64,000 nucleotides of DNA, taken from NCBI GenBank assembly GCA_963662465.1, contig OY759599.1, forward strand, positions 4,032,001 through 4,096,000. Direction: 5' to 3'. Position numbers: made by a program. Position 1 is the first letter of the stretch. Each line of letters opens with the position of its first letter. Positions 36,001 through 42,000 of the stretch are shown one piece after another. Origin of the DNA: Desulfatiglandales bacterium. Its GTDB lineage: Bacteria > Desulfobacterota > DSM-4660 > Desulfatiglandales > Desulfatiglandaceae.

Positions 36001-39000
36001 AACTTACGGTATACTATAAGATCCTAAAAAGAGAAAGATTTGGTTCGACTCGGTGAATGTAATTATAATCAGAAGTAAAGGAAAACAAAGAATGAAAATC
36101 ACACAATTGGATATTGAGGGTTTCCGCTCTCTTCGAAATGTAAGCTGGTTTCCTGGTGATCTCAACGTGATTATCGGTCCTAACGGGACTGGCAAATCAA
36201 ATTTGTTACGATTAATGGAATTAATTTCCGTATCAGCACAGGGTAAACTCGGCAAATATATTCAATCGTTGGGTGGAATGGATCCGATTGTTTGGGACGG
36301 CACAGCTACTTCGATAAAGTTTGCCCTTGAGTCAATCCCTGAAGGAGGAGAGCTAGGTCCTGAACACTACGAGCTTGAACTAGCAAGGCTCGGGGCTGGA
36401 AGTTCATATAAAGTTGAAAAGGAACTTTTGATCAACTCTCATAAATTAAGGAAAAATATTGAAAAAAAACCATTTAAATTTCTAGAAAGATTCTCAAGGA
36501 CAGCTGTTATTTTTGATGAAACGGAACATACCTTTACTACTCCTGAAGAGTTTGTTTCAGAGGAGGAAAGTCTTCTTTCAATAGCATCAGGGCCATTTGT
36601 CAATAATCACTACATTCCACCTTTTCAACGGGAATTGGCATCTATTGCTGTTTATCATGATTTGCATACCAATAAGGACGCCTCTGTTCGTCAACCTGCT
36701 ATCTCTCGAATGGAAAAACGAGTTGATCCTGATGGACAAAATCTCATATCGGTTATGCATACGCTTTACACAGGTGATCGTGATTTTAAAAAAGATATAA
36801 ATTCTGCCATGCGAGCAGCATTTGGTGATGATTTTGAAGAGTTGGTTTTTCCTCCTGCGTCTGACCAGAGGATTCAAATGAGAGTTCGCTGGAGATCACT
36901 AAAGCGTGAGCAATCAGCTGCTGAGCTTTCAGACGGAACACTACGTTTTTTATTTTTGTTAACGGTGCTGGCAAGCCCATCACCGGCTCCAATTATCGCG
37001 ATCGATGAACCAGAGACAGGGCTGCATCCATCAATGTTGCCTTTGGTTGCGGAGTATGCAGTTGACGCAGCCACTAGATCTCAAGTTATTCTGACGACGC
37101 ATTCCCCACAATTCTTGGATGCTTTCGGTGGAACTCAGCCTACAACCACTGTTGCAACCTGGGAAAATGGTGAAACTTTATTAAAAACGCTAAAAGGAGA
37201 AAACCTTGACTACTGGCTGAACGAATACTCTCTGGGGGCTCTTTTTAAATCTGGAGAATTGGAGCAGATGATATGAGATTTGTTTTTTTTGTGGAAGGCT
37301 ATACTGAAAATAAGTCGCTACCTAAATTTTTAAAAAAATGGCTTGATCCAAGATTAGATAATCCTGTCGGGATTCGAACTATCCGATTTGAAGGATGGTC
37401 TGAACTAGTAAAAGACGCTCCTCGAAAAGCAAAAATGCATCTGAATGGGCCAGATAAAGGCGATATTATTGCCGTGATTTCTTTGTTGGATCTTTACGGC
37501 CCGACCTTTTATCCGAATCATATTGAAAACTACGATGAGCGTTATGAGTGGGGGAAAAAATATATTGAAGACAAGGTAAATCATTCACGTTTTTTTCAAT
37601 TTTTTGCAGTTCATGAAGTTGAGGCATGGCTTCTGAGTCAACCAGATATCTTCCCTCTTAAAGTCAAAAATGCATTCCCCCCAAAGATTCAAAATCCGGA
37701 ATTGGTAAACTTTAATGAACCGCCGGCAAAATTATTGGAACGTCTTTATCGTTTGCATGTAAAAAGATCATATAAAAAAGTCGTGAACGGGAAAGAACTT
37801 TTCGATAAACTCGATCCGAATATCGCATATCACAAATGTCCAAAATTTAAAGAGCTTCTGGATAAAATGTTAGAGTTAGCCCAACCAGACGCTACACATT
37901 GACCGCAAGGGGCGCGGTTTTATTACCGGTTGTCCCTTTTGTGTTTCCGGTTCTATTTGTAAGCGCTGAGTTCCCTTGCGGCAATTGAACTCGATTGTTA
38001 TAGCATCACACGAATAGATGCAACTCACAGGTCTCGTTTAGCCTTTCGGGGTGAAAGCAGTCCTTGACAAATTCCACTGCTAAAATGGAGGTACGATGAC
38101 GTCGCCAATTAAAGACAAGTATGCTATCGTTGGAGTGGGATACACGCCCCAGGGCCGTGTCCCTGGAAGAACATCTCTCAGTTTCCATTTGGAGGCGTCA
38201 GCCAATGCCATCAAAGATGCCGGCCTGAATAAAGACGATGTGGACGGTTTCATCTGTTACCGCCACTTTCCCGCCGCTTCGGATGAGGACGACCTGACGC
38301 CCCAATTTATCGCTCAGCAACTCGGGATTTCCCCCGCCTACGTCAGCCAGGACGGCAACTGATCGCGAAATCACCTTCAGCACGCAGTTGGCGCGCTCGA
38401 ACTTGGTTTATGCCGTTACGTTCTTATCTCCTATGGTCACAATGCCCTTTCCAGCGACAGCATGTTTCAGATGCTTATGACATTATCAGGCGATGATGCC
38501 GTCTTCGGCCATTTTGGCGCCACCGGCGGTTATGCGCTCGCTGCCAGAAGGGCCATGCACCAATTCGGCACTGGACCTGAAACCTGGAAACAGATTGCCG
38601 TTGGGCAGCGAAAGTGGGCCAACCTCAACCCGGCCGCCATGATGCATGACAAGCTCATGACCGAAGCGGATTACGACAACGCAAGGTGGGTTGTCGAGCC
38701 GCTACGCCTGCCTGACAACTGCCTGATTAATGATGGCGGCCGCGCTATTATCGTCACCTCCCTTGAGCGGGCACGCGACCTGAAACAGCCTCCGGCAGTA
38801 ATAATGGGGATGGGGATGCACAATCCCTCGACGGTCATTGCTCAGTCCGACTGGATGGCTGGGCCCAGCGGCGCCAAACAGGCCGGAGAGGCAGCTTTTA
38901 AAATGGCGGACATCACCCTGAATGATGTGGATGCATGCCAGACCTATGACTGTTTTACCTACACTGTGGAACTCACTCTCCAGGACTATGGTTTTTTTAA

Positions 39001-42000
39001 ACCCGGCGAAGGGCGCGATTGGTTCCAGGGCGGAACGATTGAACCCGGCGGCAGGATGCCGGTGAATACTTCAGGCGGGCAGCTTTCGGAAGCCTACTTC
39101 ATGGGTCTGACGCCCATCGCCGAAAGCGCTGTGCAGCTTATGGGCCGGTGCGGGAAACGACAGCTCGGCCCCGCCACCCGGACCAAAGCGCCTGAGATTA
39201 TAATGTGTAGTGACAATGGTGGTATTTTGCAGAGTCACGCATGCATCCTGCTAAGGAGGTTGTAACGATGCCATACGAAAAACCATTGCCAAAACTCAAT
39301 GGCGACAACACCCCCTTTTGGGAGGGGTGTCGCCGGCATGAACTCAGATTTCAGCAATGCAACGATTGTGGCCACGTCAGATGGCCGCCGTCCGATCTTT
39401 GCCCCCAGTGCCATTCCACTGAAATCAACTGGTTGATTTCCAAGGGGATCGGCAGGGTATACACATTTGCTGTCTACCACACCGCATTCCATTCGGGATT
39501 CGCAACCGACGTGCCATATACTGTGGCCGTCGTGGCGCTCGATGAGGGACCCCACCTTCTAACCAATATTGTCGACTGCCGACCCGATGAGGTGAGATGC
39601 GACATGCCGGTAGGGGTATTTTGGGAGGATGTCGACGAAAGAATAACACTGCCGAAATTCAAGCCATTATCGTGTGTCCGGGCATAAAGCGACGATTGGC
39701 CGTACCCTGCCTGCTTAATTGCATAAAAAAAGAGGGCTAAGGGAACTTCCCTTCATATTCATGCGTTGGTCGTGAAGCACCAGGATGCGACCCCATTGCA
39801 TTTTTCCTTGACATGTTATTCCAAAATAGAATATTTCCATTTAGACTATTTTATCATACCGCAGTCGAGACCCGGTGATATTGAAAGGAGCAGCGAAATG
39901 AAACGGATATTGTGGATGAGCATCTTGATGGGGTTTGCTATTTTTCCCGAACCGGTTTTTTCGGGAGAGGATATTACCGCCTTGCCTGACGTTGTCGTAG
40001 AAGGCAAATTCGCGGAACAGGATTTTGTGGGACCCGTGTTTACGGAAACCAACACCAAAACAAAAATCACGGAAAAAGGGATAAACGCCCTCGGTCCCGG
40101 CTCAAAAATGTCCGTGCCAAGAGCCATAAGTCTTATTCCATCCGTGAATCAGCAGAGCGTTGATCCAAATGGTCTTGCGGATATCAGCAATTATCACGAA
40201 TCTTTCAGGTTCAGGGGGATTGAACCCACCGGTGGCGGAAACCCCTCCACCCCAGTTAATGTGGAGAATATCCCGGTTACCGGAAGACCTGGGGGCGGCG
40301 GAAACATCTATGATCTGGAAAATTTTGGAAGCATATCCATTTATAAGGGAGGCGTTCCAGCCGATAAGGCATTCGGATTGACGAATATCGGCGGAAAAAT
40401 TGATATGGCGGTAAAAAAACCCAAGGGAGAATTCGGTTTCGATTTGAAGCAGGCCTTGGGAAGTCATGACTTCAGAAGGACTTTTTTGCGTCTTGATACG
40501 GGATTGTTTTCCACCGAAACCGCGGGTTTCCTGTCATATTCCAACACCAACGCCGACAAATGGAAGGGCGAAGGGGATTCCAATCGAAATAATGCAATGC
40601 TCGGTTTGACTCAGAAAGTCGGCGACGGATTAAAAATAGAAGCATTCTCCATCTACAACAACGCAAAGATCAATCCCTACAGACCGCTTAATTATAAAGA
40701 GGCGTCATCGCTAAGCAAGAATTACAATTTTGATTATACGGATAATAGTGCCGACTATTTCTATTATGGTTACAATAAAAGTGATTTTGAAGATTATAAT
40801 ATTTTTGCAAATATTGAATATAAGTTTAATAAAAATTCCAGCATAATGGTGAAGCCGTTTTATTGGAAAGATGATGGCTATTATCTGGAAACCATCACAA
40901 TGAAAAACGGAAAAAACCGGATCAGACGATGGGACATAGACCATGAGTTGAGCGGCGTTTTAAGCCAATATTCATTGAAAATTCAATCAGCGGACTTTAA
41001 TGTGGGCTATTTTTATCTTGAGCAGGAAAGACCCGGACCGCCCACCTCATGGAAATTGTATAAGGTATCGTCCGGCAATCTTGATTTCGACAAATGGCAG
41101 GTCCTTTCCAATTCTTCAAAGCACCGTCAACATGTTCCTTTTGTATCAGGGAAATATTCAATAGGGCCCTTCAATATTGAAGGCGGCATCAAATATCTGA
41201 GATATTCAATGCCGGACATCACCACATACGACACAACCGGCATCCCGGATGTCAGCTATGAAGACGCCCTCGGCATGGTGACCGGCACTGAAGCGGATGC
41301 AAGTGCCAATTCAAAAGATTTCAATGAAATTCTTCCCAATTTCGGTTTGAATTACAGGATAAACGATGAATTGAATGGCTATTTTTCATATGGCAGAAAT
41401 TATGGCATGAGTGTGGCCCTTTACCCCTATTTTATCTCGCAAAAAAGTGCTTTCTATAAAAAAGGCATCACGCTGCAGGATCTCTGGAATAAACAGGAAC
41501 TCGAAATTGCGGACAATTTTGATGTGGGGTTGCGATACATCACGGACAACCTGTATGTGGCGCCCACCCTTTATTATGCCAAACACAAAAATAAGACCGC
41601 ACCTTATTACGACGCCTCCATCGAGGCCACCTTCCCCGCCGCGGTTTTTGATGCGGATGCATACGGTTTCGAATTGGAGGCAGGCGTTATGCCTTTGGAA
41701 AATCTGTCTCTCTATGGATCCTTTTCCTACAACAGATTCTGTTTTTCCCAAGATATTTATGATCAGGCGGGCGCCGCTATTTCAGTAAAGGGCAACCAGG
41801 TGCCTGATGCCCCGGAATTTCTGGCGAAAGGCATCGCAAGTTACAGCATCGGATATTTTACCTTTTCTCCCGTTGTGAGATATACCTCCAGCAGATATGG
41901 CGACATTTTGCATGAAGAAAAAATTGACGGCGCAACGCTCTTTGATTTCGATATTACCTATACAACAGCCTTTCCAAAGATTAAGATTCAAAAACTGGAT

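Follow-up and report, generated by a model that had tools for sequence, protein, structure and literature searches.

An in-frame TGA at the nucleophile column of a DUF35-partnered thiolase-fold protein very probably encodes selenocysteine

The window analysed here, a stretch of 64,000 nucleotides from a Desulfatiglandales bacterium (GCA_963662465.1, contig OY759599.1, contig positions 4,032,001 to 4,096,000), carries a thiolase-fold gene at 38096..39265; coordinates are window positions on the + strand unless marked as contig positions. Gene callers cut this gene into two pieces in the same frame, 38096-38362 (88 aa) and 38462-39265 (267 aa; g03738 and g03739). Reading through yields 389 residues up to a TAA stop at 39263-39265; codon 89, the TGA at 38360-38362, is the only internal stop. 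The two pieces belong to one gene, as the initial annotation had proposed. A putative ribosome-binding motif, GGAGG at 38087..38091 (+), was recognised by its sequence 4 nt 5' of the ATG. The protein matches Pfam Thiolase_C_1 (PF22691, E 4.3e-37), and its AlphaFold2 model has a pLDDT of 84.5 and a pTM of 0.88. The best NCBIfam models stayed under their own cut-offs (NF004811, 273.9 bits against 421; the lipid-transfer protein model NF005892, 231.4 against 469), and a search of NCBIfam for a selenoprotein model of this family found none. Both halves of the gene are under purifying selection, as pairwise dN/dS lay at 0.07-0.11 wherever dS was unsaturated, in codons 2-88 as well as in codons 107-388, and the 34 codons from the TGA to the next ATG are conserved to the same degree as the remainder of the gene.

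Directly 3' lies the DUF35 gene (39268..39687, +) that had been named as its partner, encoding a free-standing protein of 139 aa with a zinc ribbon (C-x2-C-x10-C-x2-C) and an OB fold (Pfam zf-ChsH2 PF12172, 3.1e-14; OB_ChsH2_C PF01796, 5.5e-19). Its longest open reading frame begins at 39241, while translation probably starts at 39268, 2 nt past the thiolase stop and 8 nt downstream of a sequence resembling a ribosome-binding site (AAGGAGG, 39253..39259, +). In 30/30 orthologous loci the thiolase-like gene is followed directly by an ORF carrying this zinc-ribbon motif, in keeping with the proposed partnership. By analogy with solved DUF35 complexes, the thiolase-fold product probably works together with the DUF35 zinc-ribbon/OB protein, likely as an alpha2-beta2 complex.

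The position of the TGA is strongly conserved. A search at E<=1e-20 returned 2365 homologous proteins, and in the best 120 of these (65-87% identical, 97-100% coverage) the column of codon 89 is Cys in 120/120, extending the 11/11 homologues reported initially. Among 105 genomes of the Desulfatiglandaceae, 13 gave a match at E<=1e-60: eight (6 genera, 70-100% identical, the genome under study included) have one TGA, always at column 89, four (61-64% identical) have a Cys codon there, and one (39% identical) has neither, so that the earlier counts of 8 TGA and 4 Cys forms were recovered. The TGA form was also found in 8/11 orthologues of a 401-genome sample of the phylum, in 5/7 orthologues of another order and at 4 further genome loci. 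In all, 23 genome loci carry it, each free of any further stop or frameshift. Scanning metagenomes with a pattern that left the hairpin described below free, TGA was found in 75/80 loci among the matches listed, representing at least 74 distinct sequences, and the conserved TGA is thus present in at least 97 sequences from many families. Sec and Cys forms are patchily distributed among close relatives, and a quick tree of 70 rows forces at least 6 switches. The TGA is not a sequencing error, because it is spanned unchanged by contigs from three further runs, including one RNA library.

A SECIS-like hairpin was located at 38379..38397 (+), composed of a 5' arm at 38379-38385 (AGCACGC), a loop at 38386-38390 (AGUUG) and a 3' arm at 38391-38397 (GCGCGCU). 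The 7-bp stem, which has one A.C mismatch in the window's copy, and the 5-nt loop with G-U occur in all TGA forms and in 0/7 Cys forms, in line with the initial annotation, although the stem starts 17 nt after the TGA and not at the offset of about 19 nt given there. Across the 97 sequences, with the metagenome part drawn from the matches listed, the hairpin is nearly invariant even at synonymous sites; the loop G28 and U29 are invariant in 97/97, while positions 27 and 30 vary. In Sec forms, the 7-codon window that starts at codon 95 shows differences in only 8.4% of its synonymous codon pairs compared with 54.3% gene-wide, the lowest synonymous variation of the gene (rank 1 of 372 windows), whereas in Cys forms the same window shows 58.7% against 53.3% gene-wide (rank 266 of 362). 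Only the Sec forms show this RNA-level constraint. Its geometry also agrees with known Sec sites of this genome, where the apical loop is predicted to close at nt 21-34 after the U of the UGA in 11/14 and a G occupies one of the first two loop positions in 11/11: the AGUUG loop is closed by the pair nt 26/32 and obeys the distance and loop rule seen in the hairpins of FdhA, FlpD and SelD. Covariation in the stem is almost nil (1 compensatory cell in 609, reached by 42/500 shuffles; 0/6 pairs in a separate stem comparison), and the caveat of an invariant stem attached to the original proposal holds. The 86-nt region of the window's copy folds no better than shuffles (z -0.41), and an Rfam search gave no family match.

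All four components of the Sec machinery named at the outset were found in the genome: SelA, SelB, SelD (itself with a TGA) and a tRNA-SeC at contig positions 4234738-4234835. SelA was present in 17/18 other genomes with the TGA form, and the 18th has SelB and a Sec-containing SelD. It was present in 7/7 genomes with the Cys form as well, and the machinery therefore does not separate TGA from Cys forms.

From the conserved TGA, the dN/dS of ~0.1, the hairpin constraint specific to Sec forms and the machinery, I infer with high confidence that codon 89 is decoded as selenocysteine, with selenium incorporated, and that the proposal of a genuine selenoprotein stands. UGA codon 89 in the mRNA would be followed 17 nt on by the short hairpin with its invariant loop G-U, which SelB carrying Sec-tRNA(Sec) would recognise, leading to selenocysteine insertion and a 389-residue thiolase-fold protein. 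The gene callers' split could instead be taken at face value, with the TGA as a real stop producing a pseudogene or separate 88-aa and 267-aa products; the missing covariation support for the hairpin fits such a reading, and 2/75 metagenome copies among the matches listed (L080 and L120) diverge or lose frame at or just past the hairpin. Against this, the same single TGA recurs in at least 97 sequences, always at an invariant Cys column, the 23 genome loci are otherwise intact, and selection is equally strong upstream and downstream of the TGA and across the 34 codons before the next ATG, so a true stop is close to refuted. Read-through without selenium, by near-cognate Trp or Cys or by Cys inserted via the Sec pathway, would give the full-length protein and no selenoprotein. 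The identity of the inserted residue is not readable from sequence data alone, and the plentiful Cys forms evidently function, but this reading leaves no role for a hairpin that is constrained in TGA forms only and obeys the SECIS position and loop rule, and Sec machinery was found in every TGA-form genome checked; it is very unlikely.

The chemistry of the protein is less secure than its decoding, and this applies to the label "thiolase" itself. In the alignment, U89 falls on the EAACASG Cys, the nucleophile of the solved thiolases 6esq and 7yvy, which bears out the placement of the TGA exactly at the nucleophilic Cys. It also shows that Tyr284 and Tyr334 stand where SCP2-type thiolases have their two catalytic His (HDCF and GHP). 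These two Tyr match Tyr294 and Tyr344, the catalytic pair of the TcLtp2 aldolase, and C286 matches Cys304 of CtSal, as numbered in PMC12329534. Y284, Y334 and C286 are invariant in 53/53 sequences. Foldseek ranked 4u4e, 6ok1 and 9myr ahead of the thiolases 7yvy and 6esq, and the three nearest solved structures are thus one protein of unknown function (4u4e) and two aldolases. No conserved beta-oxidation genes were seen in the neighbourhood of the 12 loci scanned, and a MaoC hydratase partner was present in only 1/12.

In selenoenzymes, Sec normally takes the place of the most reactive catalytic Cys. A whole explanation, selenoprotein and chemistry together, in which Sec89 acts as the acyl-accepting nucleophile is favoured slightly. 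Occupying the position of the thiolase nucleophilic Cys, the selenolate of Sec89 would attack a 3-oxoacyl thioester at its carbonyl to give an acyl-selenoester intermediate, the Y-D-C-F residue Cys286 would protonate or deprotonate the leaving two-carbon unit, and Tyr284 and Tyr334 may fill the hydrogen-bonding roles of the two His in SCP2-type thiolases. Since both of these His are Tyr, as in the Ltp2 aldolase, this acyl-selenoester Claisen mechanism is a best guess only. It is possible, if rather doubtful, that the selenoprotein is not a thiolase at all but a retro-aldolase of the Ltp2/Sal type or an enzyme of some other acyl transfer, for instance a PhlC-like acyltransferase, with Tyr284 as base, Cys286 or Tyr334 as acid, and Sec89 helping to handle the substrate or aldehyde, donating or accepting hydrogen bonds, or forming a redox switch together with a neighbouring Cys. 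The invariant Tyr and Cys residues shared with TcLtp2 and CtSal, the aldolases in DUF35 complexes that follow 4u4e among the structural neighbours, and the sub-threshold NCBIfam scores all point that way. The substitution rule for selenoenzymes argues for a catalytic nucleophile instead, as does the column itself, which holds Cys in the best 120 of 2365 homologues or Sec in at least 97 TGA forms, whereas that Cys is missing from those aldolases of this fold that have been characterised (Ala in 6ok1, Ser/Gly in 9myr, by the alignment and PMC12329534). The rarity of a MaoC hydratase also speaks against an aldolase, as in Ltp2 and Sal the hydratase itself carries DUF35 as a domain. Of the original claim of a first Sec thiolase with non-redox C-C chemistry, Sec at the nucleophile column has held up, and the thiolase identity stays no more than plausible because of the His-to-Tyr changes, the aldolase-like structures and the missing beta-oxidation context.

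If Sec decoding is correct, a widespread protein family is added to the known selenoproteins. Table 1 of the 2026 selenoprotein review (PMC13188914), with its 119 families and subfamilies, does not include the thiolase-fold family, consistent with the initial designation of a new prokaryotic selenoprotein family, and neither the 2026 nor the 2022 review contains the word "thiolase" (0 occurrences), as stated before. The same table lists a predicted Sec-containing CTP-synthase-related glutamine amidotransferase (GxUxG motif; deep-Sep 2025), which likewise would have Sec at a Cys that forms a covalent acyl-enzyme intermediate, as a non-redox nucleophile; it differs in fold and in catalysing amide hydrolysis rather than C-C bond cleavage or formation, and both cases are predictions.

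Among enzymes of the same fold, the best sequence and structure match is the putative thiolase 4u4e of Sphaerobacter thermophilus (sequence E 1.1e-64; Foldseek E 2.5e-37 at 36% identity), which differs by a Ser at column 89, by Y-D-S-F in place of Y-D-C-F, and by the His of Y-T-H-P where E-A-Y stands here. The nearest characterised structures are the steroid side-chain aldolases TcLtp2-ChsH2(DUF35) (6ok1, E 7.6e-37) and CtSal-Shy(DUF35) (9myr, E 2.1e-32), at 29-30% identity. They share the DUF35 partnership and Y-D-x-F with its catalytic Tyr, but lack the nucleophile-column Cys, and their DUF35 module is built into a MaoC hydratase as one of its domains and is not a free-standing protein. The DUF35-associated, SCP2-type thiolases (archaeal acetoacetyl-CoA thiolase 6esq/6et9, Pyrococcus 7yvy and benzoylsuccinyl-CoA BbsAB 7pxp) have in common the thiolase fold, the Cys of EAACASG at residue 89, the Cys of x-D-C-F (C286) and a separate DUF35 zinc-ribbon/OB partner gene. 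They differ in being only 24-26% identical, in having His where Tyr stands here, and in the putative Sec nucleophile, and neither HMG-CoA synthase nor bbs genes were found near the thiolase-like gene in the 12 loci scanned. A thiolase carrying selenium was reportedly described from Clostridium kluyveri by Hartmanis and Stadtman in 1982, its selenium said to be non-specific selenomethionine and not UGA-encoded Sec. The closest parallel in decoding is offered by bacterial genes with a SECIS inside the ORF, with E. coli fdhF as archetype and FdhA, FlpD/MvhD and SelD as examples here: these too have UGA at a Cys column, a hairpin directly downstream with its apical loop ~20-30 nt past the UGA and an early loop G, a patchy Sec/Cys distribution, and SelA, SelB, SelD and tRNA-Sec in the genome, whereas the role predicted for the thiolase-fold protein is covalent acyl chemistry rather than redox.

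The two ORFs called at the thiolase-like locus are, judged by sequence, one translated gene. Both lie on the + strand and share a frame, ORF 1 at 38096-38362 (88 aa) and ORF 2 at 38462-39265 (267 aa), and when the TGA at 38360-38362 is taken as a residue they join into a single protein of 389 residues, in which U89 is the sole recoded codon and which ends at a TAA stop (39263-39265). The read-through protein contains the Pfam domain Thiolase_C_1 (PF22691, E 4.3e-37), while no NCBIfam model matched it at or above that model's cut-off. Pairwise dN/dS (NG86) was 0.07-0.11 and alike for codons 2-88 and codons 107-388 in pairs with unsaturated dS; comparing loci L001 and L031, for example, gave dS of 0.62 and 0.65 and omega of 0.095 and 0.113 for the two segments, respectively. 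A second stop or a frameshift was found in none of the 23 genome loci that carry the TGA. Gene callers routinely cut the gene of this family in two, and many genomes are therefore misannotated at this gene.

Relatives of the read-through protein are numerous (2365 at E<=1e-20). Cys stands at column 89 in every one of the best 120 of these, which are full-length proteins of 65-87% identity, and in all seven genome loci with a Cys codon there (Cys forms). In the same family, 13 of 105 genomes had a match at E<=1e-60. Eight of these, from six genera, 70-100% identical and with the present genome counted, have exactly one stop, which is a TGA in the same column; four others (61-64% identical) and a distant, paralogue-like match (39%) have no in-frame stop. 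An even sample of the phylum (401 genomes) yielded 11 matches at E<=1e-100, namely eight with a single TGA, again including the present genome, and three with a Cys codon, and 37 genomes of another order yielded seven, five with TGA and two with Cys. Genome contigs, scanned with peptide patterns that were derived from one protein and were overly specific, yielded only six loci and added four TGA forms, which brings the genome loci to 23 with TGA and seven with Cys.

Metagenome contigs were scanned with the pattern Q-D-A-N-TGA-S-R-x-H, leaving the hairpin discussed below unconstrained. I found at least 120 matching stretches, and 75 of the 80 loci listed are the thiolase-like gene, 74 of them distinct. 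Cys or Sec is kept at column 89 in the best 120 relatives, which have Cys, and in 97 sequences with TGA. The five other listed loci (L068, L074, L079, L121, and L123) are chance matches in another frame which resemble each other in translation near the match, and probably reflect a single unrelated gene, conserved and GC-rich, that is read out of frame. Two of the 75 listed TGA forms, L080 and L120, diverge in sequence or lose the frame within or just past the hairpin, perhaps as broken copies or through assembly errors. For the window itself, an assembly error at the TGA was ruled out, as the codon is unchanged in contigs from two other DNA runs and one metatranscriptome library, which bridge it at 38184-38964 (record 2), 38170-38404 (record 11), and 38276-38693 (record 18); the metatranscriptome library may contain DNA, so that a bridging contig from it means presence in an RNA library and is not proof of transcription. 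RNA-library contigs leave parts of the window uncovered, and nothing is concluded from these gaps.

Downstream of the TGA, counting its U as nt 1, every TGA form examined can form a 7-bp stem at nt 20-26/32-38 that closes a 5-nt loop. On the + strand of the window the 5' arm lies at 38379-38385, the loop at 38386-38390, and the 3' arm at 38391-38397; the loop reads AGUUG and follows the family rule N-G-U-N-G. Across 97 sequences (87 distinct rows), loop positions G28 and U29 are invariant and the third-codon positions 27 and 30 vary: among the matches listed, the 74 metagenome forms have A, C, and G at position 27 in 64, 6, and 4 cases, and T, C, and G at position 30 in 66, 5, and 3 cases. The variant loops CGUGG, GGUCG, CGUUG, and CGUCG, seen in a Syntrophales MAG (L056:1753-1809) and in several metagenome loci, all keep G-U at loop positions 2-3. 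They differ only at the synonymous loop positions 1 and 4, which is consistent with recognition of the loop through its G-U.

The strongest argument at the RNA level is a synonymous constraint that is specific to the Sec forms. Synonymous codon pairs were compared in 7-codon windows along the gene for 15 genome-derived Sec forms and seven Cys forms. Gene-wide, the two groups were similar, with 54.3% and 53.3% of synonymous pairs differing, respectively. In the window from codon 95 only 8.4% of pairs differed among the Sec forms, the lowest of 372 windows, whereas the Cys forms reached 58.7% in the same place (rank 266 of 362). Among the Sec forms, the windows beginning at codons 93-97 are the five lowest, and the seven lowest are contained in codons 92-104. 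Codons 96-98 are CAC GCA GTT in all 15 Sec forms, whereas the Cys forms differ among themselves in both codon and residue.

The bSECIS consensus that Zhang and Gladyshev reportedly set out in 2005 asks for a stem-loop directly past the UGA whose first or second loop base is G, a form that the thiolase-like hairpin with its N-G-U-N-G loop has. FlpD/MvhD, FdhA, SelD, and an Fdh-like gene of this genome together supply 14 known Sec sites, each an in-frame TGA, as a local reference. In 11 of the 14 the predicted fold closes its apical loop at nt 21-34, and all 11 loops so placed have a G at position one or two. With its closing pair at nt 26/32, the thiolase-like loop has the same placement. Compensatory change is rare: over the 97 sequences 90.6% of cells are paired, and a single compensatory cell was found among 609 (C-G to U-A, columns 24/34), a count reached by 42 of 500 shuffles, and RNAalifold on 13 forms gave no covarying pair among six. 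An A.C mismatch at columns 23/35 occurs in 28 of the 87 distinct rows, the window copy included. The 86 nt past the TGA fold no better than shuffles (z -0.41), and hairpin stability in the window copy is therefore not evidence. Rfam, scanned with 38300-38480 at E<=10, gave no SECIS family, only two matches at chance level. Two Cys forms (L014:1753-1809 and L015:2335-2391) do not have the conserved hairpin and in its position fold over 60 nt into a different, stronger one (-28.1 and -26.5 kcal/mol, respectively), perhaps a relic or a coincidence of GC-rich coding sequence.

The genome carries the genes for Sec insertion. SelA scored 614 bits (cut-off 268), SelB scored 382 bits (cut-off 242), SelD carries a TGA of its own (G-S-G-U-A-S-K), and tRNA-SeC lies at contig positions 4234738-4234835. 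The selenoproteome of this genome is large: in-frame TGAs occur in nine of 16 FlpD/MvhD-family matches, one of which has two, and two FdhA genes and one Fdh-like gene have one each. Among 18 other genomes with TGA forms, SelA was above cut-off in 17, and the 18th (G219) has SelB and a Sec-containing SelD. SelA was also present in all seven genomes with Cys forms, so the machinery, though required, does not tell the two forms apart. Taken together, Sec decoding of the UGA in the thiolase-like gene is very probable. In a quick IQ-TREE phylogeny of 70 rows, Sec and Cys forms are interleaved; parsimony requires nine changes, and at least six are forced by well-supported branches. Because the hairpin is nearly identical across lineages even though the tree mixes both forms, this pattern fits a single origin of the Sec form, which would have been followed by repeated Sec-to-Cys reversion or by transfer.

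The gene 3' of the thiolase-like gene encodes zf-ChsH2 and OB_ChsH2_C domains, which jointly make up DUF35. It more likely starts at the ATG at 39268, 2 nt past the thiolase-like stop and 8 nt past AAGGAGG, than at the longest-ORF start at 39241. A DUF35 ORF with the zinc ribbon C-x2-C-x10-C-x2-C adjoins the thiolase-like gene downstream in 30 of 30 loci, each time as a free-standing gene. Scanning 37850-39850 for promoters and terminators found nothing on the + strand near the genes beyond shuffle expectation. The wider neighbourhood was surveyed in 14 loci of about 17 kb, and 12 of these (L047 and L053 were left out) were compared against Pfam with 124 ORFs. No neighbour other than DUF35 was common across lineages, and a MaoC gene and an acyl-CoA ligase were each found in one of the 12 loci. 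As the neighbourhood beyond DUF35 is not conserved, the substrate is not inferable from context.

Several features of individual neighbourhoods were recorded. Two genes lie directly upstream in the window (36053-37902, + strand). One encodes a 407-aa ATPase (AAA_21/AAA_15) and the other a 209-aa DUF4276 protein; their PADLOC matches are HEC-01A (E 1.7e-60) and HEC-01B (E 3.9e-15), a candidate defence pair. At a locus of the same genus, L041, two ORFs cover the ATPase (L041:6731-7045 and 7106-7903); DUF4276 is absent from the ORF set scanned. The DUF35 gene is followed by an uninterrupted TonB-dependent receptor gene of 790 aa (39766-42138, + strand), which recurs only at L041, followed there by DUF3450 and ExbB-like genes, and near the Cys-form gene of L052. 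In genome G121, the Cys-form orthologue sits inside an open frame of 856-909 aa (L050:6588-9155), in which about 470 upstream residues have no Pfam match; this stretch may be a genuine N-terminal fusion or simply an open frame.

An AlphaFold2 model built from a 53-sequence alignment (pLDDT 84.5, pTM 0.88) has the thiolase fold, with Foldseek probabilities of 1.00 and TM scores of 0.77-0.84 against thiolases and their relatives. Its best structures were, in order, 4u4e, a putative thiolase of Sphaerobacter thermophilus with 36% identity, and the DUF35-containing aldolases 6ok1 (TcLtp2-ChsH2) and 9myr (CtSal-Shy), followed by 7yvy and 6esq, which are true thiolases. In phmmer alignments, U89 aligns with the nucleophile Cys of EAACASG in 7yvy and 6esq, and its counterpart is Ser in 4u4e, Ala in 6ok1, and Ser in 9myr. 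The SCP2-type motif H-D-C-F reads Y284-D-C286-F in the family, so that the Cys is kept and the His is not, and the His of the SCP2-type G-H-P motif is replaced by Y334. Counted along the 6ok1 alignment, Y284 and Y334 correspond to Tyr294 and Tyr344 of TcLtp2, and C286 corresponds to Cys304 of CtSal; PMC12329534 describes the two TcLtp2 tyrosines as catalytic and CtSal Cys304 as essential. C89, R91, C106, C209, Y284, D285, C286, F287, E332, Y334, and C352 are invariant in all 53 aligned sequences.

The route from UGA to catalysis can be proposed in steps. The hairpin would direct SelB-dependent insertion of Sec at UGA89, for which the sequence evidence is strong, and the product would assemble with the DUF35 protein, as solved homologous complexes and the strict gene pairing suggest. 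The Sec89 selenolate may then attack a thioester or keto carbonyl to give an acyl-selenoester, with C286 as a presumptive acid/base and the two tyrosines as likely hydrogen-bond donors. Sec generally takes the place of the most reactive Cys, and this rule favours the acyl-selenoester step. So does the fact that Cys or Sec is never lost here, at a position where the characterised aldolases no longer have the Cys. The step is disfavoured by the absence of both His and by the presence of the Ltp2 tyrosines. That this family of Desulfobacterota/Syntrophales-type anaerobes makes or breaks C-C bonds through a Sec89 acyl-selenoester, in a His-free site where two Tyr stand in for the two SCP2-type His and a low selenol pKa makes an activating base dispensable, is a tentative proposal, possible and somewhat doubtful.

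Prokaryotic selenoproteins known to date are nearly all redox enzymes. Most of them are thiol-oxidoreductase-like according to PMC13188914. On the sequence data, the thiolase-like gene very probably represents a real, widespread, and uncatalogued selenoprotein family. The word thiolase is absent from this 2026 review, the Table 1 of which has no thiolase-fold entry among 119 families, from a 2022 review (PMC9312934), and from the deep-Sep paper and four of its supplement files. A full-text literature search found no Sec thiolase; its scope did not extend to subscription journals or to Supplementary Table 6 of PMC8318568, a list of putative new selenoproteins from marine Deltaproteobacteria that may include the family. 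If the proposed chemistry is true, Sec at an acyl-accepting site would extend the use of selenium to covalent carbon-carbon or acyl-transfer chemistry, the enzyme would be the first selenoenzyme for Claisen-type, non-redox carbon-carbon chemistry, and a natural Sec/Cys pair would be at hand to test what selenium contributes to acyl-transfer catalysis. The family supplies many such natural pairs, 83-87% identical, for direct comparison, and it is common in metagenomes of anoxic sediment and sludge (at least 120 pattern matches).

A selenium-containing thiolase was reportedly described from Clostridium kluyveri in 1982, with its selenium present as selenomethionine, which is a different thing from the Sec of this family. 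With the SCP2-type, DUF35-associated thiolases the family shares the thiolase fold, the nucleophile column (Cys or Sec), and C286 of Y-D-C-F. In contrast to them, it has Tyr284 and Tyr334 in place of both catalytic/oxyanion His in 53 of 53 sequences, and is therefore not filed as a canonical thiolase. With the Ltp2/Sal retro-aldolases (PMC12329534) it shares the catalytic Tyr of Y-D-x-F and, by alignment, counterparts of the second acid, Tyr344 for Ltp2 and the motif Cys for Sal. It differs from them in keeping the Cys or Sec at the thiolase nucleophile position, where the aldolases have lost the Cys, and in its DUF35 protein, which is free-standing in 30 of 30 loci, whereas theirs is a domain of a MaoC hydratase in a steroid side-chain operon. 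Since it has the nucleophile of the thiolases together with the tyrosines of the aldolases, the family is filed neither as a canonical thiolase nor as an Ltp2/Sal aldolase, and an active site that fits neither characterised group of the superfamily makes it worth assaying whatever the selenium does.
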